Translations under genes and position numbers: made by a program | DNA from: an uncultured bacterium | Lineage (GTDB): Bacteria; Patescibacteriota; Minisyncoccia; Phycocordibacterales; UBA9973 | Direction: 5' to 3' | DNA length: 50,248 bases | NCBI GenBank assembly: GCA_903888625.1 | Contig: CAISUD010000060.1 | Location: forward strand, 1-50,248 | Part shown: positions 3,360 through 50,248 of the stretch, in pieces | Position numbering within the stretch: the stretch's first letter is position 1 | Layout: every line of letters starts with the position of its first letter | Notes under the pieces: generated by a model | What the model saw: only the letters and a program-made list of their open reading frames with translations | Database searches by the model: none | Told to the model about the DNA's origin: nothing

Positions 3360-3494
3360 TTGCTTTTTCTAAAAAGGTGGTATGATTAATATGTCGGGTC
3401 CTATTTACTACATTAATTTACTCGAGGACATTTATAAAATAACTTATGTTATATGGTTTATTTAGATAAATACGTCATATTAACTATTAAAAAA

Positions 3495-4520: not shown

Positions 4521-4949
4521 ATGCAGAAATTTTTAGGGATAGATTTTGGGACAAAAAGGGTAGGATTAGCCATTTCGGATGAAAATGGCCAGTTGGCTTT
4601 CCCATTTAAAATTTTGAAAAATGATGCCGAATTATACGATATGATTCATAACATTTGTGGGGAAGAAGACATTTCCGAAATTGTACTCGGTGAATCGTTG
4701 GATTTTTCTGGTGAGGAAAATGTTTTAATGGAAAAAATAAAACAATTTAAAAAAGAATTAGAAAAATTAAATTTACCAATTCATTTTCAAAAAGAATTTT
4801 TGACAACGGTTGAAGCGAGGGGCAGGGGTGGTAAAGAAAAAAATAATGCCAGGAAGGTGAAAAAAGTAGAAGCTCAAAAAGCTGATGCCGTAGCTGCCGC
4901 TCTTATTTTACAAAGGTATTTGGACCGAAGAAATTCACCTCACCCCTAG
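4521..4949 (+). CDS. ruvX: Holliday-junction-resolvase-like nuclease RuvX/YqgF
   Basis: MQKFLGIDFGTKRVGLAISD start typical of YqgF, so Met 4521 is preferred to the track start 4473. The stop TAG 4947-4949 lies inside the palindromic element. Confidence 0.8.
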   Translation: MQKFLGIDFGTKRVGLAISDENGQLAFPFKILKNDAELYDMIHNICGEEDISEIVLGESLDFSGEENVLMEKIKQFKKELEKLNLPIHFQKEFLTTVEARGRGGKEKNNARKVKKVEAQKADAVAAALILQRYLDRRNSPHP

Positions 4950-4987
4950 CCCCTCTCCTTATAAAGGAGAGGGGCTAGGGGTGAGGT
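4937..4987. repeat. GC-rich palindromic element, copy 1 (complete)
   Basis: Perfect 24-bp arms acctcacccctagcccctctcctt / aaggagaggggctaggggtgaggt with a 3-nt loop. The flank ttctttaggattttaatt is shared with copy 2. Confidence 0.9.
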
Positions 4988-5011
4988 TCTTTAGGATTTT
5001 AATTAAATTTT

Positions 5012-5026: not shown

Positions 5027-5401
5027 ATGAGCTATGTGTCTTATGATGAATTTAAGAAAATGGAAATACGAGTTGGGACTATTTTAAAAGTAGAACCTGT
5101 TCCAGAAACTGACAAACTTCTTTGTTGTCAGGTTGATTTCGGTTCAATTATTATTGAAAATCCTGATGGCACGAAAGAAGAAAAGAGAAACATTAGACAA
5201 ATTATTTCTGGAATTCATGAATATTATCCCGATCCAAGTGTTTTAATCAACAAACAAGTTTTATATATTGTTAATTTAGAACCAAGGACAATCAAAGGTT
5301 ACGAGAGCAATGGGATGTTGATGGCAGTCGATGGAATAGATGGCAAGCCAGTTTTCCTTGTTCCAGAGGTGCCAGTTAACCCTGGAAGTAAAGTTAGATA
5401 A
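5027..5401 (+). CDS. tRNA-binding domain protein (CsaA / EMAP-II-like OB fold)
   Basis: FKKMEIRVGTILKVEPVPETDKLLCCQVDFG ... LEPRTIKGYESNGMLMAV matches the tRNA_bind domain pattern. Confidence 0.75.
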   Translation: MSYVSYDEFKKMEIRVGTILKVEPVPETDKLLCCQVDFGSIIIENPDGTKEEKRNIRQIISGIHEYYPDPSVLINKQVLYIVNLEPRTIKGYESNGMLMAVDGIDGKPVFLVPEVPVNPGSKVR

Positions 5402-5402
5402 A

Positions 5403-7100
5403 ATGGAATATAAAAACGAAACAAAAAACTGTCAGAATTGTAAAAATGAGTTTGTAATCAAACCAGACGATTTTGGGTTTTATGAACAAATGAAAGTTCC
5501 TCCTCCTGTTTGGTGTCCACAGTGTCGCTTACTTCGACGTATGGCTTGGTATGGATATCGAATTTTATATAAACGTAAATGTGATTTTACTGGTGAAAAT
5601 ATAATTACTTTTTATCATCCTAGTGTTCCAGGAAAAATTTATAAACAAGATATTTGGTGGAGTGATAAATGGGATCCAAAAAGTTATGGTCGCGATTATG
5701 ATTTTTCTAAACCATTTTTTGAACAATACAAAGAATTATTTGAGGAAGTTCCTAAGGCTTCACTTAACACAGAATATACTACTATGATAAATAGTGAATA
5801 TTGTAACGCAGCTAGTTTCCAAAAAAATGGTTATCTTTGTTTTAAACATATTACTGGAGAAGATTCTGCTTATACAAACGTAGCATTAAATACAAAAGAT
5901 TCTTTAGATCTTGCTTATTCATCCAACCCAGAACTTTGTTATGAAATAGTGGATGTGCGAAATTCTTTTCAAACTTTTTTTTCGCAAGATTGTGAAAATT
6001 GTCACAGTGTTTATTTCTCTAGAGATTTAGTAAATTGTGGTGATTGTTTTGGATGTACCTCATTAAGGAATAAAAATTATTGTTTATTTAATAAACAATT
6101 AACTAGAGAAGAGTATTTAAAAAAAATTAAAGAATTTGATCTTGGTTCAATGAAAAATGTTTTGGAATTTAAAAGAAAGGCTTATCTTTTGTCATTAGAT
6201 TATCCACGTCGAGCAACTCTTGGTAGAAATAATTTAAATGTTTCTGGAGAATATATATATAATTCAAAAAATGTTCATGATGCGTACTTTGTTTCTGATT
6301 CAGAAAATATTAGATACTCTCAGTTATTTTTAAAAGGGAAAACTCATAATTGTTATGATTTTACAGCTTTTGGTTCTAGTTCAGAATGGATATATGAAGT
6401 AACTTGGATGGGATTAAATACTTCGAATGTTAAATTTGGAATTTGGGGATATCGTAATCATCATACAGAATACACTTTTGGTTGTCATGGGTCTGCTTAT
6501 TTATTTGGTTGTGTTGGTTTAAATAAAGCCGAATATTGTGTTTTTAACAAGCAATATTCCAAAGAAGAATATTTTTCATTAGTTGAAAAAATTAAAAAAC
6601 AAATGGAAAAAATTCCTTTTATTGACAGAAGAGGATTAAAGCATGGATATGGTGGGCAGATACCCATTGATCTTTGCCCATATGCTTATAATGAATCTAC
6701 TGCTTTTGAATTTTTCCCATTAACAAAAGAAGAGGCGATTGCTAAAGGTTTTACTTGGCGTGACCCTGATTCACGTGAATACCTTCCAGCTAGTATTATT
6801 ATTCCAGATCATATTAAAGATGTGACAGATGATATATTAAAAGCAATTTTAAAATGTTTAGCTTGTGGTAAGAATTATCAAATAATTCAAAAAGAGTTAC
6901 AATTTTTACGTCGTTTTAATTTTCCTATTCCACATGATTGTCCACTTTGCCGAGATAGGAATCGTATTAAACAATTAAATCCGATGCAAACATATAAACG
7001 TAGCTGTGGTAAATGCAATATAGTAATTGAAACTTCTTATTCACCAGATCGACCAGAAATAGTTTATTGTGAAAAATGTTATCAGCAGGAAGTTTATTAA
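5403..7100 (+). CDS. cysteine-rich zinc-ribbon-flanked repeat protein, unknown function (paralogue 1)
   Basis: Start set at MEYKNETKNCQNCKNEF by identity with paralogue 2 (track start 5340 overlaps the upstream gene). N- and C-terminal CxxC...CxxC ribbons. Internal CxxCxxCFGCxxL..YCxFNKQ motifs. Confidence 0.75.
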   Translation: MEYKNETKNCQNCKNEFVIKPDDFGFYEQMKVPPPVWCPQCRLLRRMAWYGYRILYKRKCDFTGENIITFYHPSVPGKIYKQDIWWSDKWDPKSYGRDYDFSKPFFEQYKELFEEVPKASLNTEYTTMINSEYCNAASFQKNGYLCFKHITGEDSAYTNVALNTKDSLDLAYSSNPELCYEIVDVRNSFQTFFSQDCENCHSVYFSRDLVNCGDCFGCTSLRNKNYCLFNKQLTREEYLKKIKEFDLGSMKNVLEFKRKAYLLSLDYPRRATLGRNNLNVSGEYIYNSKNVHDAYFVSDSENIRYSQLFLKGKTHNCYDFTAFGSSSEWIYEVTWMGLNTSNVKFGIWGYRNHHTEYTFGCHGSAYLFGCVGLNKAEYCVFNKQYSKEEYFSLVEKIKKQMEKIPFIDRRGLKHGYGGQIPIDLCPYAYNESTAFEFFPLTKEEAIAKGFTWRDPDSREYLPASIIIPDHIKDVTDDILKAILKCLACGKNYQIIQKELQFLRRFNFPIPHDCPLCRDRNRIKQLNPMQTYKRSCGKCNIVIETSYSPDRPEIVYCEKCYQQEVY

Positions 7101-7124: not shown

Positions 7125-8888
7125 ATGGAATATAAAAACGAAACAAAAAACTGTCAGAATTGTAAAAATGAGTTTGTAATCGAACCAGATGATTTTGGAT
7201 TTTATGAAAAAATAAATGTTCCACCTCCAACTTTTTGTCCAGAGTGTAGAATGAAAAGAAGAATGATTTGGAGGAATATAAGATTTTTAACTAAAGGCAA
7301 AGATGCTAAAGGGAACGAAATATTTATGTGTATTCATCCAAAAGCAAAGATTCCAGTGTACGAGTTTTCTTATTGGAACAGCGACAACTGGGGTGCTTTG
7401 AGTTTTGGCAGAGAATATATTTTTACTAAAAACTTTTTTGATCAGTTTCGAGATCTTTTTTATTCTGTGCCATTTCCAGCAAAAACTATTCAGAGATCGA
7501 TTAATTCTGATTATTCAAATAATTGTGATGATATGAAAAATACTTATTTGTGTTTCAATGCTACTTTCTTGGAAGACTGTGCTTATTGCATCGGTGCTAG
7601 TAAGTTAAAAAATTGTTTTGATATGAGTACTTGTTATGAAGATGAACTTTGTTATGAAAGTGTTCGAGTAGATAAAAGTTACCACACTATTGGATCTTAT
7701 ATGTGTGATAGCTGTGTAGATGTCTATTTTTCCAAGGATTGTGTGGGTTGTAATAATTGCTTTGGGTGTGTAAATTTGCGTAATTCTTCTTATAAAATAT
7801 TTAACGTACAATACACAAGGGAAGAATATATTAAGAAATTAGAAACATATAATTTACATACTTGGGGAGGTTTTTCTAAGGCGAAAAAAGAGGCTGAAAA
7901 TTTTTGGAGAAAGTTCCCGATAAAATATATGCTTGGTTTTCGGAATCATATGGTTTCAGGAGAAGATATAAAAGATAGCAGAAATGCAATTAATTGTTAT
8001 GGGGTAAAAGGAGCTGAAAATATTAAATATGTGCAAGATGCTTCTTTTGGTGGAGCTAGTAACTCTTATGATTTTACAAGTTGGGGATTAAACGTGTCTC
8101 AATTGTATGAATGCTTAGTGTGCGGAGAAAACCTTTATGATTTGAAGTTTTGTTATAATTGCTATCCTGACTGTCGAGAACTTGAATATTGTATTCAAAT
8201 GAGAAGATCTAAAAATTGTTTTGGATGTGTAGGGCTTAGAGATAAACAATATTGTGTTTTGAACAAACAATTTTCTAAAGAAGAGTATTGTTCACTAGTT
8301 GAAAAAATCAAGAAACAAATGGAAGAAATTCCTTTTATTGATAAAAAAGGAAATATATATAAATATGGGGAATTTTTTCCAAGCGATCTTTCTCCTTTTG
8401 CTTATAATGAGACTTATTTAAATGATCATTTTCCTTCCAACAAAGAAGAGGTTGAGAATATTGGTTTTAATTGGCGAGATGCAGAAAAAAGAGAATATGC
8501 AACCACTTTGGATTTTAGTGAATTAGTCGAATCTATTAAAGAGGCAGATGAATCAATAACTAAAGAAGTAATAAAATGTTCAGCCTGTAATAAAGCATAT
8601 CGGATTTTAAATAGCGAGTTTAGTTTTTTAAAAAATTTAAATTTACCATTGCCTAGAAAATGTAATAATTGTAGATTTTCCGATAGACAAAAGTTTATAG
8701 TTCCACCAAAATTTACAGAAGCTCAATGTATGTGTGGAGGAGAACAATCTATGAATTTTAAGTATAAAAATACTAGAATACATGATTTTCATAGAGGAGG
8801 AGAATGTCAAAATTTTTTTATGACCGCTTATGACTCTCAAAAAGATATTATTTATTGTGAAAAATGTTATCAGCAGGAAGTTTATTAA
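7125..8888 (+). CDS. cysteine-rich zinc-ribbon-flanked repeat protein, unknown function (paralogue 2)
   Basis: Same architecture as 5403-7100. The first 57 nt and last 38 nt are identical at DNA level to paralogue 1. Confidence 0.75.
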   Translation: MEYKNETKNCQNCKNEFVIEPDDFGFYEKINVPPPTFCPECRMKRRMIWRNIRFLTKGKDAKGNEIFMCIHPKAKIPVYEFSYWNSDNWGALSFGREYIFTKNFFDQFRDLFYSVPFPAKTIQRSINSDYSNNCDDMKNTYLCFNATFLEDCAYCIGASKLKNCFDMSTCYEDELCYESVRVDKSYHTIGSYMCDSCVDVYFSKDCVGCNNCFGCVNLRNSSYKIFNVQYTREEYIKKLETYNLHTWGGFSKAKKEAENFWRKFPIKYMLGFRNHMVSGEDIKDSRNAINCYGVKGAENIKYVQDASFGGASNSYDFTSWGLNVSQLYECLVCGENLYDLKFCYNCYPDCRELEYCIQMRRSKNCFGCVGLRDKQYCVLNKQFSKEEYCSLVEKIKKQMEEIPFIDKKGNIYKYGEFFPSDLSPFAYNETYLNDHFPSNKEEVENIGFNWRDAEKREYATTLDFSELVESIKEADESITKEVIKCSACNKAYRILNSEFSFLKNLNLPLPRKCNNCRFSDRQKFIVPPKFTEAQCMCGGEQSMNFKYKNTRIHDFHRGGECQNFFMTAYDSQKDIIYCEKCYQQEVY

Positions 8889-17087: not shown

Positions 17088-17130
17088 GCTCCCTCTCCTT
17101 AATAAGGAGAGGGCAAGGGTGAGGTTCTTT
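17088..17130. repeat. GC-rich palindromic element, copy 2 (left arm truncated)
   Basis: gctccctctcctt aata aggagagggcaagggtgaggttcttt. The right arm and flank match copy 1 at 4964-5000. Confidence 0.8.
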
Positions 17131-18541: not shown

Positions 18542-19603
18542 ATGCAAACCTTAAAAGACTTTGATTTAACAGATTACAATACCTTTGGCATAAATGCTAA
18601 AGCAAAATTTTTAGTTGAGATAAATAAAGAAGCAGATTTTTTAGAATTACTTGAAACTACTGAATACAAAAACAACCAAAAACTTTTTTTAGGCGGAGGA
18701 AGTAATATGCTTTTAGTGAAAGATTTTGACGGGCTCATTGTTTTAAATAAATTAAAAGGCATTGAAATAATTAAAGAGGATGAGGAAAATGTCTGGGTAA
18801 AAGCGATGGGTGGGGAAATATGGAACGATTTGGTTTTATTTTCAGTTGAAAAAGGTTTTTGGGGACTTGAGAATTTGTCGCTCGTGCCAGGCACCGTCGG
18901 TGCTTCACCAGTACAAAATATTGGAGCCTATGGGTCTGAAGCTAAAGATACTATCTTTGAAGTTGAGGCTATCGATATAAAAAATGCAGGGAAAAAAGTT
19001 TTTACAAATAAAGAATGTGAGTTTGGTTATCGAGATAGTATTTTCAAAAATAAATTAAAAGGTAAATATTTTATTATTGCAGTTATTTTTAAATTAAGTA
19101 AAAAACAAAATAAAAATGTAAATTATCGAGCCTTGCAAGAATATTTGGATGAAAATAAATTGGAAATAAAAAGCTCGGGGGATGTAGCCAGAATTATTGC
19201 CGAAATCAGAGAGAGTAAATTACCCAATCCAAAAATTTTAGGTAATGCTGGAAGTTTTTTCAAAAATGTATATGTGGATATAGATAAATTGTTAGAGATA
19301 GAATTGTTATATCCGGATGTTCCATGTTTCGAAGAGGAAAACAGAACCTCACCCCTGACCCCTCTCCTTAATAAGGAGAGGGGAAACCAGACAATAAAAA
19401 TCCCGACAGCGTGGCTCATAGAGAAATGTGGTTGGAAAGGCAAAAGAGTCGGTAATGTCGGCGTACACATCAAACAATCGCTCGTTTTAGTAAATTATGG
19501 CGGAGCCACCGGCGCGGAAGTCTTGGACTTAGCCAATAAAATAATCGATTCCGTTGATCAAAAATTCGGCATAAAACTCACCCTCGAAGTGAATTTGATT
19601 TGA
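18542..19603 (+). CDS. murB: UDP-N-acetylenolpyruvoylglucosamine reductase
   Basis: FAD-binding N-terminus FLGGGSNMLL, LSLVPGTVGASPVQNIGAYG, GNAGSFFKN, and a C-terminal AWLIEKCGWKG ... LVLVNYG region. Confidence 0.9.
   Translation: MQTLKDFDLTDYNTFGINAKAKFLVEINKEADFLELLETTEYKNNQKLFLGGGSNMLLVKDFDGLIVLNKLKGIEIIKEDEENVWVKAMGGEIWNDLVLFSVEKGFWGLENLSLVPGTVGASPVQNIGAYGSEAKDTIFEVEAIDIKNAGKKVFTNKECEFGYRDSIFKNKLKGKYFIIAVIFKLSKKQNKNVNYRALQEYLDENKLEIKSSGDVARIIAEIRESKLPNPKILGNAGSFFKNVYVDIDKLLEIELLYPDVPCFEEENRTSPLTPLLNKERGNQTIKIPTAWLIEKCGWKGKRVGNVGVHIKQSLVLVNYGGATGAEVLDLANKIIDSVDQKFGIKLTLEVNLI
19346..19383. repeat. GC-rich palindromic element, copy 3, in-frame inside murB
   Basis: acctcacccctgacccctctcctt aata aggagagggg. 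Translated as TSPLTPLLNKERG within the murB reading frame. Confidence 0.85.
19546..19603 (+). repeat. direct repeat A: functional 3' end of murB
   Basis: Aligns without gaps to 20802-20859, with 17-nt identical blocks gatcaaaaattcggcat and cgaagtgaatttgattt. Confidence 0.85.
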
Positions 19604-20801
19604 TATTCATAGGTAATAAGTTATCCACACCACGAAATTGACTTAATTCGTGGTTTCTGATACCATGAAATTATGCAATTTAATAGAATACAAACAATAG
19701 AAAAAGAACTTTCTCCCAAAAGGGTTTTAATTGTATATGGCCCAAGAAGAATTGGTAAAACCACATTAGTAAAAGCTTTTGCTGAAAAAAATAAGAACAG
19801 AAAAGTTTTGTTTTCTGTAGGAGATGATATGAGGTTACAAAAGCTTTTTAACTCCGGTCTTCGGAAGGAAATATTAGAATGGGCAATACCCTACGAAATT
19901 CTTATTATTGATGAAGCTCAATATATAAAAAATATTGGTCAAGCTATTAAAATGATAATTGATGAATATGGAGACAAGAAAATTATTTTAACTGGATCTT
20001 CTTCTTTTGAAATTGCTCAAAATGTGGGCGAGCCATTGACTGGTCGTCATTTTACTATGACATTACTGCCAATTATGCAGAACGAAATTTTAAAAAGTAA
20101 TTTTGAAAAAAAAGAGATACTCGAAGATATTCTTGTTTTTGGATCTTACCCAGAAATTTTAATACAAAATGATAAAGAACAAAAAATACGTATTTTAGAT
20201 GAGTTAGTAAGTTCGTATCTTTTAAAAGATATTTTGATTTTGGATAAAATAAAATCACCCAATACATTAATTGATATTTTGAAAGCTTTAGCCTTTCAAG
20301 TTGGTAATGAAGTTTCTTTTGCAGAAATAGGCAATCTTGTTGGTAGAGATACAAAAACGGTTCAAAGATATATTGATATTTTAGAAAAAACCTTTGTTTT
20401 AAAACGAGTCAAAGGTTATAGTAAAAATTTAAGAAAAGAAATATCTAGAAAATCTAAATTTTACTTTTATGATTTAGGGGTGAGAAATGCAATTATCAAT
20501 CAATATAATGGGGTTTCATTAAGGAATGATGTCGGTGCGCTATGGGAGAATTTTGTTTTTATGGAGCTTTATAAAAAATCTCTTGCTTTTAAAGAATACA
20601 AAGAATTTTATTTTTGGAGAACTCATGAAGGTGCAGAAGTAGATATAATTACAGAAAAAGATGGGAAGATATCAGCTTATGAATGTAAATGGACAAAAGA
20701 TGGTTCTAAAAATTTAAAATTATTTAAAACAATTTATCCAGATGCAGAAATTAGTGTCGTCAATAAAGATAATTATTTGGATTTTTTAACTGTAAAACAA
20801 T
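19604..20801 (+). mobile_element. putative single-gene cassette (AAA+/DUF4143 ATPase) inserted in the murB 3' end
   Basis: Bounded by the duplicated murB tail. Carries its own TTGACT-17-TACCAT promoter. A paralogous arrangement occurs at secY. Confidence 0.5.
19638..19666 (+). promoter_or_regulatory. promoter TTGACT-17-TACCAT (TGa extended -10), leaderless
   Basis: The -10 ends 6 nt before ATG 19673. Confidence 0.5.
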
Positions 20802-20809
20802 CGATTTAG
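19673..20809 (+). CDS. AAA+ ATPase with DUF4143-type C-terminal domain (COG1373-like)
   Basis: Walker A GPRRIGKTT, Walker B LIIDEAQ, central HTH-like region, C-terminal EVDII...YECKW (D...ExK nuclease-like motif). Confidence 0.8.
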   Translation: MQFNRIQTIEKELSPKRVLIVYGPRRIGKTTLVKAFAEKNKNRKVLFSVGDDMRLQKLFNSGLRKEILEWAIPYEILIIDEAQYIKNIGQAIKMIIDEYGDKKIILTGSSSFEIAQNVGEPLTGRHFTMTLLPIMQNEILKSNFEKKEILEDILVFGSYPEILIQNDKEQKIRILDELVSSYLLKDILILDKIKSPNTLIDILKALAFQVGNEVSFAEIGNLVGRDTKTVQRYIDILEKTFVLKRVKGYSKNLRKEISRKSKFYFYDLGVRNAIINQYNGVSLRNDVGALWENFVFMELYKKSLAFKEYKEFYFWRTHEGAEVDIITEKDGKISAYECKWTKDGSKNLKLFKTIYPDAEISVVNKDNYLDFLTVKQSI

Positions 20810-20859
20810 TCGATCAAAAATTCGGCATCAAACTTGTCCCCGAAGTGAATTTGATTTAG
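20802..20859 (+). repeat. direct repeat B: displaced, diverged copy of the murB 3' end
   Basis: Still reads DQKFGIKLVPEVNLI* in the murB frame (functional copy: DQKFGIKLTLEVNLI*). 11 mismatches in 58 nt. Confidence 0.85.
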
Positions 20860-20876
20860 GCCCCTTAGGGTGTATA

Positions 20877-20918
20877 ACCCGGTAGTAGAATTTTTTGCAA
20901 AAAATCTCACTACCGGGT
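20877..20918 (+). terminator. long hairpin following the relic murB tail
   Basis: acccggtagt ... actaccgggt outer stem with an inner A/T stem. The 3' end overlaps GGGTATAAT (a possible -10 for the FKBP gene). Confidence 0.45.
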
Positions 20919-20958
20919 ATAATTAACTTATTATAAATTAATTTTTTAAAATAAATAT

Positions 20959-44962: not shown

Positions 44963-46234
44963 ATGAATAATTTTTGGAATAAAATGAAATTAATTTGGAC
45001 AGACATCTCTCTACGTAAGAAGATTCTGTTTGTTTTAGGTGCCTTAGTAGTTTTTAGACTTCTAGCATCTATTCCAATTCCAGGAATCGACACTGTAGAG
45101 CTCAATCGTTTTCTATCCAACAATCAATTTTTCGGAATCTTAAATATCTTTTCCGGGGGTGGACTTTCTAATCTTTCGATCATCATGCTTGGAGTCGGAC
45201 CATATATTACTGGTTCGATTATTATGCAACTTCTTACAATTATGGTGCCAGCCTTAAAAAGGCTTTACCACGAAGAAGGCGAGCTTGGCAGAAAGAAATT
45301 TTCTCAATATTCCAGGTTAATCACTGTTCCACTTGCAGCTGTTCAAGGTTTTTCACTGCTTGCAATTTTACAATCACAACATATTTTAACTAACTTAACT
45401 TTTTTCAGTAAAATGACCAATTTGATTGTCGTCATCGCTGGTTCTATCTTGTTGATGTGGATCGGAGAATTGATGTCAGAATTTGGTATTGGAAACGGTG
45501 TTTCACTTTTGATTTTTGCTGGTATCGTGGCTCGGATTCCTTCCGAAGTCGGACAATTCTTTTTCTCTTTTGATGTTTCGCAAATCCCGCTTTTGTTATT
45601 GTTCATCGCTATGGGCGCCCTGGTTATTGCGGGGGTAGTGGTGGTGACCGAAGCTGAACGACCAATTCCGGTGACCTATGCCAAGCAAGTTCGAGGTTCG
45701 AAAATGTATGGTGGTGGTTCTACTTATTTACCACTTCGCGTAAACCAAGCTGGAGTTATTCCAATTATTTTTGCTCTTTCAATTTTACTCTTTCCTCAAA
45801 TGATCGGTAACTTTATGGCTGGTTCCGCTAATGCCATTGTACTTAAAATTTCTCATGCTTTAGTTGCTTTTTCACAAACATCCTGGCTATATGCAGTCTT
45901 ATATTTTATTTTAGTTTTCCTTTTCACTTATTTTTATACAGCCGTCACTTTCGACCCAGAAGCACTTTCGACTAATTTGCAAAAAAATGGAGCCTTCATC
46001 CCAGGTATCAGGCCTGGTGCATCGACTTCAACTTATATTTCAAAAGTTTTAAATCGTATCACCTTACTTGGAGCCATCTTCCTTGGTTTGATTGCTATTT
46101 TACCGCTCATCATGCGAGCCGTAACCGGCATCACCGCTATCGCTATGGGTGGCACAGCCCTCCTCATCGTTGTCTCAGTTTTACTTGATCTCATTAAAAA
46201 AGTAGACGCCCAGATCTCTATGCGAGAATACTAG
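44963..46234 (+). CDS. secY: preprotein translocase subunit SecY
   Basis: RKKILFVLGALVVFRLLASIPIPGID ... LGVGPYITGSIIMQLL ... ten TM helices. Confidence 0.95.
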   Translation: MNNFWNKMKLIWTDISLRKKILFVLGALVVFRLLASIPIPGIDTVELNRFLSNNQFFGILNIFSGGGLSNLSIIMLGVGPYITGSIIMQLLTIMVPALKRLYHEEGELGRKKFSQYSRLITVPLAAVQGFSLLAILQSQHILTNLTFFSKMTNLIVVIAGSILLMWIGELMSEFGIGNGVSLLIFAGIVARIPSEVGQFFFSFDVSQIPLLLLFIAMGALVIAGVVVVTEAERPIPVTYAKQVRGSKMYGGGSTYLPLRVNQAGVIPIIFALSILLFPQMIGNFMAGSANAIVLKISHALVAFSQTSWLYAVLYFILVFLFTYFYTAVTFDPEALSTNLQKNGAFIPGIRPGASTSTYISKVLNRITLLGAIFLGLIAILPLIMRAVTGITAIAMGGTALLIVVSVLLDLIKKVDAQISMREY

Positions 46235-46236
46235 GA
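46196..46236 (+). repeat. direct repeat A: functional 3' end of secY
   Basis: aaaaaagtagacgcccagatctctatgcgAgaatactagga. 40 of 41 positions identical to 47412-47452. Confidence 0.9.
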
Positions 46237-47411
46237 TTCAGGTTGCATTTTAGGTATGTATTTTGTATACTATACTCATGAATTATATACGACAAATAAC
46301 CAATAATTTAAAGAATAATTTAGGTAAAAAACCAATTATTGTTCTTTATGGGGCTAGACAAGTCGGAAAAACTACTTTAGTAAAGAATATTTTAACTGAT
46401 TTTAAAAATCCTCTTTACCTTCAAGGAGATGACCCAAAAGACATTCTTTTGTTAGAAAAAAAATCTGGAAAAGAACTTCAAACACTTGTTAGTAATCATG
46501 ATATTATTATCATCGATGAAGCACAACAAGTTGAAAATATTGGTAATATTTTAAAACTTATTGCTGATAATGTACCAGGAGCAAATGTAATTGCTACCGG
46601 ATCTAGTTCTTTTGATTTAGCAAATAAAATTAGTGAACCCCTGACTGGCAGAAATCGCAAATTTTATTTATATCCGCTCTCAATAAAAGAAATTATTTTG
46701 GCTTATGGAGAAATTGATGTAAATAAAAAACTCGAAGAGTATTTAATTTTTGGAATGTATCCGCAAATAGTAAATTCATCTTCACGTGAAGAAAAAAAAA
46801 TATTAGTTAAAGAATTAGTGAGTGATTATTTATTTAAAGATTTGTTTTTATTTGGTGATATTCGCAATTCTTTTGCTTTTGAAAAATTAGTAAAATTGCT
46901 CGCACTTCGTGTTGGAAGTGAAATCTCATATTCGGAACTCGCCAAAGAAATTGGGATTAGTCGCGATACTGTTTTAAATTATGTTACTTTATTAGAACAA
47001 TCATTTATTATCTTTCGTTTAAAACCATTGTATACAAATAAAACGAAAGAAATTAATAAAACTCATAAAATATATTTTTATGATATTGGTATTAGAAATG
47101 GAGTTTTAGGTAATTTTGATCCACTTGAATTAAGATCAGATAAAGGTGCAGTTTTTGAGAATTTTTTTATCTCTGAAAAACTAAAACAACGGTCATATCT
47201 GGGTGATGATAGTGATATAAATTTTTGGCGTAATAGGCAAGCTGGGGAAGTTGATTTTATTGAATCTTTTCATCAAGGAAGAGAATTATTTGCATATGAA
47301 TGTAAATGGAAAGAAATTGTTAGTACACCTATTTCATTTAAAAATATTTATCCGAATGCAAAATTTACCTGCATAACAAGTTTTAATATAGTAGATCATT
47401 TTAATCAAATC
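46237..47411 (+). mobile_element. putative single-gene cassette (AAA+/DUF4143 ATPase) inserted in the secY 3' end
   Basis: Bounded by the duplicated secY tail. Has its own TTGCAT-17-TATACT promoter. Same design as the murB insertion. Confidence 0.5.
46243..46271 (+). promoter_or_regulatory. promoter TTGCAT-17-TATACT, leaderless
   Basis: The -10 ends 6 nt before ATG 46278. Confidence 0.45.
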
Positions 47412-47450
47412 AAAAAAGTAGACGCCCAGATCTCTATGCGGGAATACTAG
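46278..47450 (+). CDS. AAA+ ATPase with DUF4143-type C-terminal domain, fused in-frame to the relic secY tail
   Basis: Walker A GARQVGKTT, Walker B IIIDEAQ, EVDFI...YECKW. The last 12 aa KKVDAQISMREY equal the SecY C-terminus. ATG 46278 is preferred to the track TTG 46263. Confidence 0.8.
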   Translation: MNYIRQITNNLKNNLGKKPIIVLYGARQVGKTTLVKNILTDFKNPLYLQGDDPKDILLLEKKSGKELQTLVSNHDIIIIDEAQQVENIGNILKLIADNVPGANVIATGSSSFDLANKISEPLTGRNRKFYLYPLSIKEIILAYGEIDVNKKLEEYLIFGMYPQIVNSSSREEKKILVKELVSDYLFKDLFLFGDIRNSFAFEKLVKLLALRVGSEISYSELAKEIGISRDTVLNYVTLLEQSFIIFRLKPLYTNKTKEINKTHKIYFYDIGIRNGVLGNFDPLELRSDKGAVFENFFISEKLKQRSYLGDDSDINFWRNRQAGEVDFIESFHQGRELFAYECKWKEIVSTPISFKNIYPNAKFTCITSFNIVDHFNQIKKVDAQISMREY

Positions 47451-47452
47451 GA
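47412..47452 (+). repeat. direct repeat B: displaced copy of the secY 3' end
   Basis: One synonymous difference (cgA/cgG) from 46196-46236. Followed by a family-C-type CTAG spacer. Confidence 0.9.
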
Positions 47453-47479: not shown

Positions 47480-48250
47480 TTATTTATTTAATCTTTTAGC
47501 CTCAGCCAAAGCAAGTTTGAAAACACTTCGCAAGGTTGTGGCTATTTCTTTTGATTCGATAATGATTCCTAATTTTTCCTTCCAGGAAGCGATCATAACT
47601 TTGTCATTATAGATTTCTATGTCAGTTGGTACAGGAAATTCATTCTGAGGAACGAGAGTCGTATCTCGATATTCAATTTGATCATTGGCTTTTCTTTTAT
47701 GGGCAAGGGGAGTGTCGGCTACGAAAGTATGGATGAATATTTTTTTCTTGGCACGTCGTTCGTAATAAGTAGAAAAATATTTTGGCAATGTTTCGTGCAT
47801 TTCTTCATAAGTAGAAGTTGAATAAATGTCTCCTTTTGAAGACAAAGAATCTTCATAAACATGCTCGAGCCCCTCAAGTCCTTCATAGAAACTTATTTTT
47901 GGTCTGTCCCCGACATTATGCATTAAAGTGAGTTCTGGTAATATTTCAAGCGCACTTTCGGCTAAGTTTTTTTGAATTTCTGCTTGTTTATTTAAGTATT
48001 CAATTAATTTAATAGGGGAGAGGGCAACATATTCTTGTTTTGGTTCTTTGCCAGAAATGTTTACTAGGTTTTTACTAGCGAGACTGTCGAGAATCACATA
48101 GCCAGTTGATCGGTTAATTCCTGCTTTTCGAGAAATCTCGGCAACTGTTCCTCGACCGAGTTCTAGTATAGTCAAATATATAGCTATTTCTTTGTCTAAA
48201 AAGCCACTTTCTTTTAATATTTCCTTTGTTTTTAATAATTGTTCTTTCAT
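47480..48250 (-). CDS. TrmB-family transcriptional regulator
   Basis: N-terminal wHTH GFLDKEIAIYLTILELGRGTVAEISRKAGINRSTGYVILDSLASKNLV plus a TrmB-like C-terminal domain. Confidence 0.8.
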   Translation of the reverse strand: MKEQLLKTKEILKESGFLDKEIAIYLTILELGRGTVAEISRKAGINRSTGYVILDSLASKNLVNISGKEPKQEYVALSPIKLIEYLNKQAEIQKNLAESALEILPELTLMHNVGDRPKISFYEGLEGLEHVYEDSLSSKGDIYSTSTYEEMHETLPKYFSTYYERRAKKKIFIHTFVADTPLAHKRKANDQIEYRDTTLVPQNEFPVPTDIEIYNDKVMIASWKEKLGIIIESKEIATTLRSVFKLALAEAKRLNK

Positions 48251-48366
48251 ATATAAGCATTATATTCCAAAGCCTATTTTGTGTCAATAGAAAATAACAA
48301 AATTTTGTGGATATCTTTTTAACCTTAAAATATATAGCTCAAAATAAATTAAATTGGTAAATTTGC

Positions 48367-48394
48367 TTGACAATATATTTAATTCTGCTATACT
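48367..48394 (+). promoter_or_regulatory. promoter TTGACA-16-TATACT (TGc extended -10)
   Basis: gcttgacaatatatttaattctgctatact. Followed by a ~110-nt leader before ATG 48508. Confidence 0.55.
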
Positions 48395-48507
48395 TATATC
48401 AAATAAGGTTATTTGAAAAAAGTTTTTAGTAGTCATTAATTGGTTTTCCAAGGCTCTTTCTGGGGTTTTAGATAACTAATTAATTATTAACTAAAAAAAT
48501 AAAAGCA

Positions 48508-49188
48508 ATGAAAACAAATTCTAAACAATTTAAGTATATTTCTTCTGATTGGGAAGATTTTTATGAAGAGTTCCTAAATATATGTAGAAAAGAACACGAA
48601 ACCGAAAATTTTTTTTATCTTCGTAGAGATTGGGAAAATTTCTATCGGCAGTATTTCGGACTAGAAGTCGATTTGTCTGAAATTCTAGTACCTCAATGTT
48701 CTAAAGAAAATTATTACCTTTTGTTTATGATAAAAGTGACACCGCAATTTGTATATGATGTATGGAATAACAAACGTCGTACAGAAAAAAGCTCATTTTG
48801 GGGAGATTCGAACTATGATCTCCATGATGGAAAGTTTGATCTTGATAAAGAAATAACATTAGGGAGAAATACAACTGAATCATATGCAGTATGGGTGCAA
48901 GGGGGTAAACGTCCTGTTCGTTACGACTATAATTCTTATTCTGAATCTATGACCATAAATTCTGGTATCACTCTTCTTGAACAAATGGTTTTCCAATCAA
49001 ATTATTACTTTAAAACAGGAAATTTGTTGGATAAAAAAATTACAACTCTTTGTGATGGGTCAAGAGACCGCGAGGGATGTATCCCAAGTATTGGATATAA
49101 TGGTAGTGGTATATTGATTATAAATCAATCAAATCCGACATATGATTTTTGGGTTGAAAAAGGCCGTCGTGAAATAGTAGTTCATTGA
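48508..49188 (+). CDS. hypothetical protein
   Basis: 226-aa ORF with an internal duplicated DWEDFYEEF / DWENFYRQYF motif. No recognisable family. Confidence 0.5.
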   Translation: MKTNSKQFKYISSDWEDFYEEFLNICRKEHETENFFYLRRDWENFYRQYFGLEVDLSEILVPQCSKENYYLLFMIKVTPQFVYDVWNNKRRTEKSSFWGDSNYDLHDGKFDLDKEITLGRNTTESYAVWVQGGKRPVRYDYNSYSESMTINSGITLLEQMVFQSNYYFKTGNLLDKKITTLCDGSRDREGCIPSIGYNGSGILIINQSNPTYDFWVEKGRREIVVH

Positions 49189-49239
49189 AAATTCTAAAAA
49201 CAAATAAAATAAAGTGTTAAACAATTAAAAATTGAAATT

Positions 49240-49725
49240 ATGAAAAGAATCCTTATTGTACAGATTGGCGGCACGATTGCTGGCGGTTATGAAAATGATC
49301 AATTAGTTTATGGAGGAGGCCCGAGAGAGTTAATTGGCAAGTATTTATCCAAAGCCGGAATAGGTACCAATACTCTTGATATTGTGCCTTCTGACCCAAA
49401 CATTCAAATTGATTTCACAATTGATTATGATGTTCTCTTTTTCAAGAATAGCACGGAAGTAACAGATGATGACAGGCTAAAGATTGCTGCATATTTGCAG
49501 GCAGTAAACTATGATCAAATCATTGTACTTTACGGCAATAACCCGGAGTCTTACTTTCGTACTGAAAAGTACGTTAAAGAGGTAGTTAAAAGAAAAACTA
49601 TTGTTTTCGTTGGATCAAAAAAGCCATTCGATGTTTATTTTTCAGATGCGCCTATTTTTCTTGGTATGGCTATCACAATGGTTCAATTGAAAGAACCCGG
49701 AGTTTATCATGTTATAAACTTCTAA
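49240..49725 (+). CDS. hypothetical protein with an asparaginase/glutaminase-like N-terminal motif
   Basis: ILIVQIGGTIAGG resembles asparaginase signature 1 (ILATGGTIAGG). The region equivalent to HGTDT reads YGNNP. Confidence 0.35.
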   Translation: MKRILIVQIGGTIAGGYENDQLVYGGGPRELIGKYLSKAGIGTNTLDIVPSDPNIQIDFTIDYDVLFFKNSTEVTDDDRLKIAAYLQAVNYDQIIVLYGNNPESYFRTEKYVKEVVKRKTIVFVGSKKPFDVYFSDAPIFLGMAITMVQLKEPGVYHVINF

Positions 49726-49743
49726 AAGAAATGTTTTAAAATC

Positions 49744-49776
49744 AAAACCCGCGGAGCAATCTTGCGGGTTTTTTAT
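49744..49776 (+). terminator. rho-independent terminator
   Basis: aaaacccgc / gcgggtttt stem with an 11-nt loop and a T run. Confidence 0.75.
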
Positions 49777-49796
49777 TTTATACTATAATAGAAAAT

Positions 49797-50192
49797 ATGG
49801 TAACAGAATATATGGGTCCAATAGGCCTTGAACCAAAAAGTAATAATTATGAACATGCTCATGAATTAGCCGAAGCTATATCTGAAGAATTTCTGAAAAG
49901 ATATGATTTAGATGGACATGGAATCGAAGAAACAACAGGGGTAAAATATGATAGTGACATGGATTTTTGGAGTTATGAAATGCTCCAGAATAATAAAGGA
50001 GAGAAACCAAAATCGAAGGAAGAAGTTGTTACAGTTTTTGAAGAAATAATAAATGGAATATATGAATGGGATTTATCAAACAAATCTGATTCTGATTTAA
50101 ATAAGGTTTATAATACCCAAAGGGGATTTCCCCGTCGGCTTGCCGCGGGGCTCCTTGTAGGAAAGATTGAAAACCCTCGGTTTTCAAGTTAA
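49797..50192 (+). CDS. hypothetical protein
   Basis: 131-aa acidic ORF. No recognisable motif. The window ends 56 nt downstream. Confidence 0.4.
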   Translation: MVTEYMGPIGLEPKSNNYEHAHELAEAISEEFLKRYDLDGHGIEETTGVKYDSDMDFWSYEMLQNNKGEKPKSKEEVVTVFEEIINGIYEWDLSNKSDSDLNKVYNTQRGFPRRLAAGLLVGKIENPRFSS

Positions 50193-50248
50193 ACTAGAGG
50201 CATGAGCCTCAAACGAACTTACCACAATATATATGACACACACTATCA

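Follow-up and report, generated by a model that had tools for sequence, protein, structure and literature searches.

The 50,248-nucleotide (nt) contig CAISUD010000060.1 of an uncultured patescibacterium (assembly GCA_903888625.1), the whole of which is called the window below, contains two genes that encode an AAA_14 ATPase fused to a DUF4143 domain, a predicted nuclease, one behind murB and the other behind secY, and each is bracketed by two copies of the tail of the gene that it follows. A preliminary description of this DNA had read the arrangement as a mobile or homing cassette carrying a surrogate gene tail. We report here that both genes are insertions, that the insertion of such genes beside duplicated target sequence recurs in their family, and that the cassette probably spreads by recombination at conserved target segments. 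The names borne by its closest homologues make the window look like a patescibacterial contig of Paceibacterota type. The target genes, tail copies, cassettes and ATPase genes of the two loci lie on the forward strand.

The first target gene, murB (18542-19603; 353 amino acids), was recognized by the Pfam families FAD_binding_4 and MurB_C and by 73% identity to protein P0122. Its tail is present twice in direct orientation (repeat D1): a gene-attached upstream copy at 19537-19603, which includes the stop codon and codes for KIIDSVDQKFGIKLTLEVNLI*, and a displaced downstream copy at 20793-20859, which can be read in frame as KTIDLVDQKFGIKLVPEVNLI*, as had been stated, and is followed by the motif GGGTGTATAA at 20868-20877. 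The duplication reported previously, a gapless match of 58 nt between 19546-19603 and 20802-20859 with two 17-nt identical blocks, is real, with 10 mismatches rather than the 11 counted earlier, and its true start lies further upstream, at 19537 and 20793. The gapless repeat (19537-19601 versus 20793-20857) comprises 65 nt at 86% identity, and past the stop codon about 20 further nucleotides are weakly alike. The tail pairs reach scores of 85 at murB and 79 at secY, against a top score of 34 among 497 control alignments of the same design between upstream and downstream flanks of different loci. Cassette 1 (19624-20789), a conserved mobile block of 1166 bp delimited by nucleotide homology to L088, L089, L090 and L091 at other loci, is separated from the murB stop codon by a 20-nt spacer (19604-19623); by eye, and unscored, this spacer weakly resembles those of the empty sites L179 and L176 described below, and it may either derive from the donor or be a degraded copy of what begins the native murB-FKBP spacer, its first 20 nt. 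At the left of the cassette a promoter scan recovered the promoter of the preliminary description, TTGACT (19638-19643) and TACCAT (19661-19666) separated by 17 nt, with an upstream TG (19629-19666 overall). The one gene between the tail copies, ATPase-nuclease 1 (19673-20809; 378 amino acids), was assigned AAA+, winged-helix and PD-(D/E)xK regions and matches AAA_14 (PF13173, 1e-28) and DUF4143 (PF13635, 2e-39), both above gathering scores, in agreement with its earlier classification; its final 6 codons and stop lie beyond the conserved block.

The same design is found at secY (44963-46234; Pfam SecY, 8e-101), where tail copies again bracket one AAA_14+DUF4143 gene. The upstream copy (46185-46236, core 46194-46236) and the downstream copy (47401-47452, core 47410-47452) form a direct repeat of 52 nt at 90% identity, with a core of 43 nt and 2 mismatches. 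ATPase-nuclease 2 (46278-47450) has 390 amino acids counted from its ATG, although the longest open reading frame (ORF) starts at a TTG at 46263; its last 13 codons and stop are supplied by the secY tail copy, and it ends in ..IKKVDAQISMREY*. It is indeed a diverged paralogue of the first protein, at 36% identity rather than the roughly 40% estimated before. Its promoter consists of TTGCAT (46243-46248) and TATACT (46266-46271), 17 nt apart. Cassette 2 was placed at 46237-47402 (1166 bp), with the end of the repeat as its left end and the codon equivalent to residue 372 as its right end; both ends rest on analogy with cassette 1, there being no close relative at another locus for comparison.

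Relatives with empty sites, which the preliminary description had proposed to look for at murB, exist for both loci. In the nearest MurB relatives with retrieved DNA (73% and 63% identity; empty sites L176-L179), genes for FKBP and SIMPL proteins start about 60 nt past murB, and these are the genes found from 20959 onwards in the window; one relative also shares the Nramp gene upstream. In relatives whose SecY is 92-94% identical (L166-L168), secY and a convergent cytidylate-kinase-like gene are direct neighbors, and no ATPase gene separates them. Both ATPase-nuclease genes are, then, insertions. Since the motif GGGTGTATAA occurs 3' of murB in the empty sites L179 and L176 and 3' of the downstream tail copy in the window, it is the downstream copy of murB that stands in the native context. 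Both secY junctions were reproduced in three independent assemblies at 99.8-100% identity, and the left murB junction in four assemblies, whose contigs break inside the ATPase gene, so far leaving the right murB junction to the present contig. Three of the independent same-strain contigs (L170, L171 and L172) end within the 3' third of ATPase 1 (window 20523-20658), which may point to a repeat that other copies in the genome have in common, or to population heterogeneity.

Several features adjoin the two insertions. A palindromic hairpin at 20877-20918, confirmed by folding (dG -14, z -6.3), lies outside the cassette in the native murB-FKBP spacer. It had been taken for the native terminator, a reading that is not supported: the hairpin has no T tract, no terminator was called there, and the empty sites L179 and L176 do not contain it. 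The hairpin is instead a separate small insertion. It sits between two copies of GGGT(G)TATAA and shares part of its length with a promoter-like TTGCAA-17-TATAAT (20895-20923) that would serve the FKBP gene. On the 3' side of the secY cassette, the window (47480-50248) carries a convergent TrmB-family gene and unrelated ORFs, where L166 and L167 (5269-8500) instead carry cmk-like, adk, amino-acid-kinase and map genes, and synteny breaks exactly at the cassette; in L153 the tail of a TrmB-like gene adjoins a cassette of the family. A gene for a DUF559 (Vsr-like) endonuclease lies between the amino-acid-kinase and map genes in L166 (7220-7660) and is missing from L167, which makes it another small nuclease gene present in one relative and absent from another.

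The cassette has discrete ends. When cassette 1 is compared with its 83-86% identical relatives at other loci (L088-L091), homology runs from ..TCCACACCACGAAATTGAC (about 19624) to ..GATTTTTTAA (20789), beginning 47-55 nt 5' of the ATG and ending 0-1 nt past codon 372. The same picture emerged from no fewer than 10 independent gene pairs, each pair 76-95% identical and situated at different loci: all that they share is a discrete unit, in which homology starts 40-88 nt 5' of the ATG and stops 0-13 nt beyond codon 372; L023 and L027, for example, are 95% identical over 1260 nt and have unrelated flanks. In the lineage of the window the last codons and the stop derive from the flank, while most family members stop 1-3 codons past residue 372. 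The 5' end of the unit is the promoter, TTGAC(T/A)-17-(G/T)ATACCAT, located 35-37 nt 5' of the ATG, and the -35 box of the cassette 1 promoter is flanked by an inverted repeat, ACCACGA/TCGTGGT, a putative operator (19629-19654). Inverted repeats matching in at least 6 of 7 positions were found upstream of family members at 71 of 96 loci, compared to 13 of 96 shuffled sequences. The half-sites of this palindrome differ between elements and change in step, which suggests that the gene is regulated by the winged helix of its own product; the winged helix probably binds its own operator. As the preliminary description had noted, no integrase is present: the 1166-bp unit holds one gene and no recombinase domain, and DDE, HUH, serine or tyrosine transposases were not found in it, Pfam and NCBIfam giving only weak AAA+ similarity to IstB. 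By eye, no core is shared among the direct repeats of closely related elements. In L027, the 21-nt right end of the cassette (CCCTgCCAgCATCATGGCAG; 3434-3454) recurs 21 nt 5' of the left end (2153-2174), a copy that the 95% identical cassette of L023 lacks; the extra CCCTgCCAgCATCATGGCAG could be the relic of a circle junction or of a tandem copy.

To survey the family, 80 loci from species-representative genomes and 78 from metagenomes were collected, and the 500 nt before each gene were aligned to the 500 nt after it, a score of at least 40 being counted as positive. Positive loci numbered 19 of 84 in the genome set (the 80 loci and four others) and 19 in the metagenome set, and after dereplication 32 of 114 AAA_14+DUF4143 loci had flank repeats, compared to 2 of 65 ORFs of similar size in the same loci (Fisher p = 1.7e-5). 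The first control set had yielded 6 positives of 69; four of the six were ATPases of the family and were removed. A search at the protein level detected direct duplications at 30 of 108 loci. The repeats range from 27 to about 190 nt, and most positive loci have the start of the downstream copy no more than about 50 nt away from the ATPase stop. The targets are diverse, comprising the tail of murI (L088 and L089, the ATPase of L088 being 87% identical to the one in the window), of an RpoD-like gene (L042) and of glycosyltransferase and acetyltransferase genes (L107, L121 and L111), the 3' two thirds of a tRNA-Arg (L011), the start of a gene downstream, with its promoter and first codons (L083), opposite-strand genes (L022 and L028) and intergenic hairpins (L008, L013 and L093). 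Positive loci belong to Patescibacteria, Chloroflexota, Nitrospirota, Desulfobacterota, Elusimicrobia, Ignavibacteria and other phyla. Duplication of the flanks, which the preliminary description had proposed to look for around DUF4143 genes, is in this way a recurrent property of the family at many different targets. Collections of phages held few family matches (9 records), and a plasmid collection had them on 144 plasmids.

Two different family members stand next to each other in L098/L099 (3001-5391) and in L083 (1309-5131), and in L005 an 84-amino-acid AAA_14 fragment (2049-2303) follows a full copy; such neighbors suggest repeated insertion at the same spot. A third target copy was looked for after the tandem elements of L099, and none was found. 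Among the control ORFs, a more distant AAA+ ATPase gene (L046, 1849-3156) has a 145-nt flanking direct repeat, and a Fic-family gene (L054, 7061-8155) has a hairpin-rich one of 74 nt.

The differences between the two copies of a target tell where the copies evolved. In the coding repeats, synonymous and non-synonymous differences numbered 10 and 3 in L077, 4 and 1 in L088, 3 and 0 in both L107 and L098, and 1 and 0 in both L111 and secY. The pooled count of 22 to 4 departs from the 40% synonymous changes expected from in-place decay (p = 4e-6), and this bias indicates that both copies evolved within working genes, in different genomes. In L107, the body of a glycosyltransferase gene is followed by a 46-nt stretch, an 85-amino-acid tail with its stop codon and the cassette, after which the same stretch appears again (44 of 46 positions identical) and leads into a different, intact tail of 90 amino acids, whose stop overlaps the start of the next gene (ATGA). 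From this layout it follows that the distal tail is native and that the proximal tail came with the cassette. In L121, tail and cassette form a unit that is present as a tandem pair; behind the pair comes a divergent native tail, which is coupled to the next gene, and the stop codon of the proximal tail lies inside the operator of the cassette. Altogether, the synonymous bias and the alleles of L107 and L121 show that one tail allele was imported with the cassette, in support of the surrogate gene tail put forward in the preliminary description.

The protein itself has intact catalytic motifs. Walker A (GPRRIGKT), Walker B (IIDEAQ), D324 and K339 are invariant among 25 sequences, at least 90% of which also have E337. 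The two ATPase-nucleases each match PDC-S01 of PADLOC (PDLC04789) over their full length (E 6e-131 for ATPase 1 and 5e-133 for ATPase 2). The model of the whole protein (predicted local distance difference test score, pLDDT, 88) resembles ORC/Cdc6, DnaA, RuvB, STAND NTPases, TnsC and MuB; this fold search is dominated by the AAA+ part (ORC/Cdc6, DnaA, RuvB and NLRs) and is uninformative on the nuclease. The C-terminal domain modelled alone (pLDDT 81) matches Hjc, the R2 element endonuclease, XisH, McrC and Can2 with Foldseek E values of 0.003-0.05, which are weak, and probabilities of 0.8-0.99, the matches being mutually consistent; Hjc has the lowest root-mean-square deviation among the top matches (3.6-4.5 A, at 20-23% identity). 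By sequence, solved structures gave only P-loop-level matches to RecA and TnsC. DUF4143 has been listed as a PD-(D/E)xK family of unassigned function (PMC3424549). With its conserved D...ExK motif and its restriction-endonuclease- or Hjc-like C-terminal model, the AAA_14+DUF4143 protein belongs to the PD-(D/E)xK superfamily by motif and predicted fold, as had been proposed, and is a predicted nuclease.

The insertions, their recurrence in the family, their discrete ends, the import of one tail allele and the intact catalytic motifs lead us to a reading that we consider probable, if by no means secure, namely that recombination at conserved target segments is what spreads the cassette, about 1.17 kb long, together with a spare end for the gene. 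The circle or homologous-recombination route, and the part of the protein in it, we infer. At each of the two loci the cassette consists of a putative operator-promoter and one gene, has integrated at the end of a conserved gene and is bracketed by two homologous copies of the target. It would move with a captured piece of target (S), either as a circle arising by recombination between the copies or as a linear fragment that includes both, and would integrate by recombination of S with the resident target, of the Campbell or ends-in type or by synthesis-dependent repair, the crossover falling in the best-conserved part of S. The copy on the side of the gene body, the surrogate tail, would then complete the gene with donor sequence, and the other copy would keep the native continuation, an arrangement that would hold for targets on either strand and for gene starts; every layout that was seen is compatible with such a cassette. 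Jumps to new targets, exactly at the cassette ends, would take a separate primary insertion step, and near-identical repeats in non-conserved DNA (L013, L015 and L126) may represent recent primary events. Tandem units as in L121 could reflect repeated integration or unequal exchange between copies, and the ATPase with its Hjc-like nuclease may start or resolve the recombination.

Several points weigh against this scheme. It leaves the first duplication at a new target unexplained. About 70% of family loci have no flank repeat, among them those of the close homologues P0007 and P0008, which lie in different contexts, and three isolate plasmids, and the surveyed loci come nearly all from metagenome assemblies. 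No circle, excision product or within-strain polymorphism of filled and empty sites was seen, and a same-strain empty site was not found, every contig with identical MurB or SecY carrying the cassette. At murB, the synonymous and non-synonymous differences number 4 and 4, and which copy was imported is not decided there: the MurB C-termini TLEVNLI and VPEVNLI are both found in relatives, and the tail DNA matches the empty-site relatives at 53/67 and 52/67 positions in the upstream copy and at 47/67 in the downstream one, which is not decisive. Finally, there are no terminal inverted repeats (left-versus-right score 13.9, against 13.4 for shuffled sequence), and no common motif was noticed by eye at ten insertion junctions, so that recognition of ends and targets by the protein is unaccounted for. 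The lack of a junction motif, combined with the Hjc-like fold, favors a structure- or homology-guided role over sequence-specific homing; the homing cassette suggested in the preliminary description is supported in part, a classical sequence-specific homing endonuclease being disfavored.

A bolder claim, which we hold as possible but rather doubtful, is that AAA_14-DUF4143 genes are autonomous single-gene mobile elements belonging to a new enzymatic class, in which the ATPase-nuclease itself catalyzes both its insertion into, and its homology-guided spread among, the ends of conserved genes, tRNAs and hairpins, a spare copy of the target being carried along. If this is true, the family's repute as one of the most common defense systems would stem largely from its insertion of itself into other loci. 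ATPase-nuclease fusions are a common design in defense systems, and this counts for the opposite view, that the gene is a host-beneficial anti-phage gene devoid of any mobility function, which is carried along passively, either when DNA is taken up and recombined by the host's RecA or through homology-facilitated illegitimate recombination that has conserved neighboring genes as its anchor, and whose duplicated tails are by-products. Both window proteins do match PDC-S01 (E ~1e-131), an ATPase fused to a PD-(D/E)xK domain that is reported to rank fourth in frequency among the "defenses" of prokaryotes and to have been transferred between the two domains of life (PMC12988326), and the family's presence on 144 plasmids also fits. 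However, its status as a candidate rests on embedding in defense loci (PMC12988326), a signal that a self-inserting cassette would give as well, and the one representative tested gave no protection against T4, T5 and T7 (bioRxiv 10.1101/2024.09.26.614923). Passive illegitimate joins, moreover, should leave ragged ends, whereas the observed ends agree within about 10-40 nt in at least 10 lineages at different targets, and control ORFs in the same loci almost never have flank repeats. We regard the defense explanation as unlikely, though still deserving serious weight.

The remaining explanations attribute the repeats to other machinery or to error. A transposon-like element that makes widely staggered cuts would leave a long target-site duplication, the downstream copy of which then decays in place. 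Near-identical pairs (74/75 in L015, 187/191 in L013, 54/56 in L011 and 45/46 in L126) and copies that abut the left end of the cassette (L125, L013, the secY locus and L121) speak for such an element, but in-place decay does not predict that 85% of the differences between copies are synonymous. Nor does it suit L107 and L028, where homology continues past the high-identity stretch, but at a protein identity of only 30-45%, or L111 and L088, where the sequence after the upstream copy is unrelated to that after the downstream copy; with no known transposase, no terminal inverted repeats and repeats of 27 to about 190 nt, we consider this origin improbable. A tyrosine or serine recombinase encoded elsewhere could integrate the cassette at att-like sites, and the duplicated 3' part of tRNA-Arg in L011 does resemble a classical attL/attR pair, with a Xer-like recombinase gene a few kb away from the cassette in L089. 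Against it, no cassette contains a recombinase, none was noticed in the window at 17.5-23 kb or 44.5-49 kb, ATPases of 83-87% identity occur at unrelated targets with no shared core, and the repeats vary in length and sequence without limit, all of which makes this route very improbable. Assembly chimeras or collapsed strain variants, lastly, might be suspected from the several independent same-strain contigs that break inside ATPase 1 and from L088 and L089, which diverge 27 nt into the downstream copy. Yet the copies are 86-90% identical rather than identical, both secY junctions recur in three other samples at 99.8-100%, and the design is seen in dozens of unrelated assemblies, so that an artifact is scarcely credible.

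Other repeats in the window were also recorded. A G+C-rich hairpin repeat family (..CCCCTCTCC-TTAnnAA-GGAGAGGGG..) has copies at 4937-4994, 17091-17114 and 19346-19383; the first forms a perfect 24-bp stem (dG -31), and the copy inside murB adds 16 in-frame residues (NRTSPLTPLLNKERGN) that are missing from homologues of 337 amino acids. Similar in-frame hairpins are present in the glycosyltransferase gene of L121. At 5340-7100 and 7125-8888 lie two tandem paralogous genes of about 586 codons each, with far better conservation at the 5' end (125 nt, 90%) and at the 3' end (53 nt, 89%) than in the middle. Short intergenic repeats 5' of ribosomal-protein genes (28357-28410/44024-44077, AAATTACGAATTATCAATTACGAATTAAA; 33768-33805/39274-39311, CTAGAGCCTAG-type) may be shared regulatory or terminator motifs.

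A gene that is listed as a candidate phage defense thus looks like an undescribed kind of mobile element. The family, with its tens of thousands of bacterial and archaeal copies, currently figures as a leading candidate defense system; if its members are selfish cassettes, censuses of defense systems and inferences of guilt by embedding need correcting, and, if the protein drives the process, a nuclease class not known to mobilize DNA would join the mobility enzymes. The mechanism would also account for the chimeric 3' ends and orphan gene-tail fragments that small genomes contain, those of Patescibacteria for example, and the design, a compact natural means by which a gene can enter an essential locus and leave it intact, could serve genome engineering.

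Among known systems, PDC-S01 (COG1373; AAA_14 + DUF4143) is the same family, which the literature treats as a single-gene defense candidate; in the literature, which we covered only in part, we found no description of mobility, discrete ends, flank duplications or surrogate tails for DUF4143, COG1373 or PDC-S01, and the papers that came up for AAA_14 were unrelated. Integrase-driven islands and prophages in the 3' ends of tRNA, tmRNA and protein genes likewise show direct repeats and bring a replacement 3' end. They differ in that the cassette is a single-gene unit of 1.17 kb whose close relatives occupy unrelated targets, with no tyrosine or serine recombinase gene within it and, as judged by eye, no conserved core in its repeats. 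The transposase, terminal inverted repeats and short, fixed-length duplication of insertion sequences and transposons were not found here either. In Tn7, with its restriction-endonuclease-like TnsA and its AAA+ protein TnsC, and with MuB and IstB of IS21, AAA+ proteins and PD-(D/E)xK nucleases likewise take part in transposition, and TnsC, MuB and IstB are among the weak sequence or fold matches of the ATPase-nuclease; however, transposition of Tn7, Mu and IS21 depends on a DDE transposase and on terminal repeats and leaves short duplications of fixed length, and none of these features is seen here. Hjc, the archaeal Holliday-junction resolvase, recognizes the structure of its substrate and not a sequence, as the absence of a junction motif would lead one to expect of such an enzyme, but unlike the window proteins it is a small stand-alone dimer with neither an ATPase nor a winged helix. 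The cassette would be categorically new if the ATPase-nuclease is the mobility enzyme.

The closest analogue is provided by the mobile endonuclease ORFs (mORFs) of fungal mitochondria, known from atp6, atp9, cox2 and nad3 of Glomus and from atp6 of Allomyces macrogynus (PMC3630166). In both cases a free-standing nuclease gene lies in the 3' part of a conserved gene; in mORFs, too, a foreign inserted C-terminal part completes the gene and the native one has been displaced to a place behind the ORF, most of the differences between copies are synonymous, and the ORF is sometimes in frame with the gene (PMC3630166). The enzymes of mORFs are of the LAGLIDADG or GIY-YIG type and their hosts are organelles, whereas here an AAA+ domain, a winged helix and a PD-(D/E)xK domain are combined, on bacterial and archaeal chromosomes and on plasmids, with an operator-promoter of their own and with targets that also include a tRNA, gene starts and intergenic hairpins. 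Empty-site cleavage is a demonstrated property of the Allomyces mORF (PMC3630166) and at most a candidate one of the present elements. Two of the signs by which mORFs are recognized are seen in the cassettes: presence and absence at the same site among relatives, at murB and secY, and a foreign co-transferred tail in front of a displaced native one, in L107 and L121.

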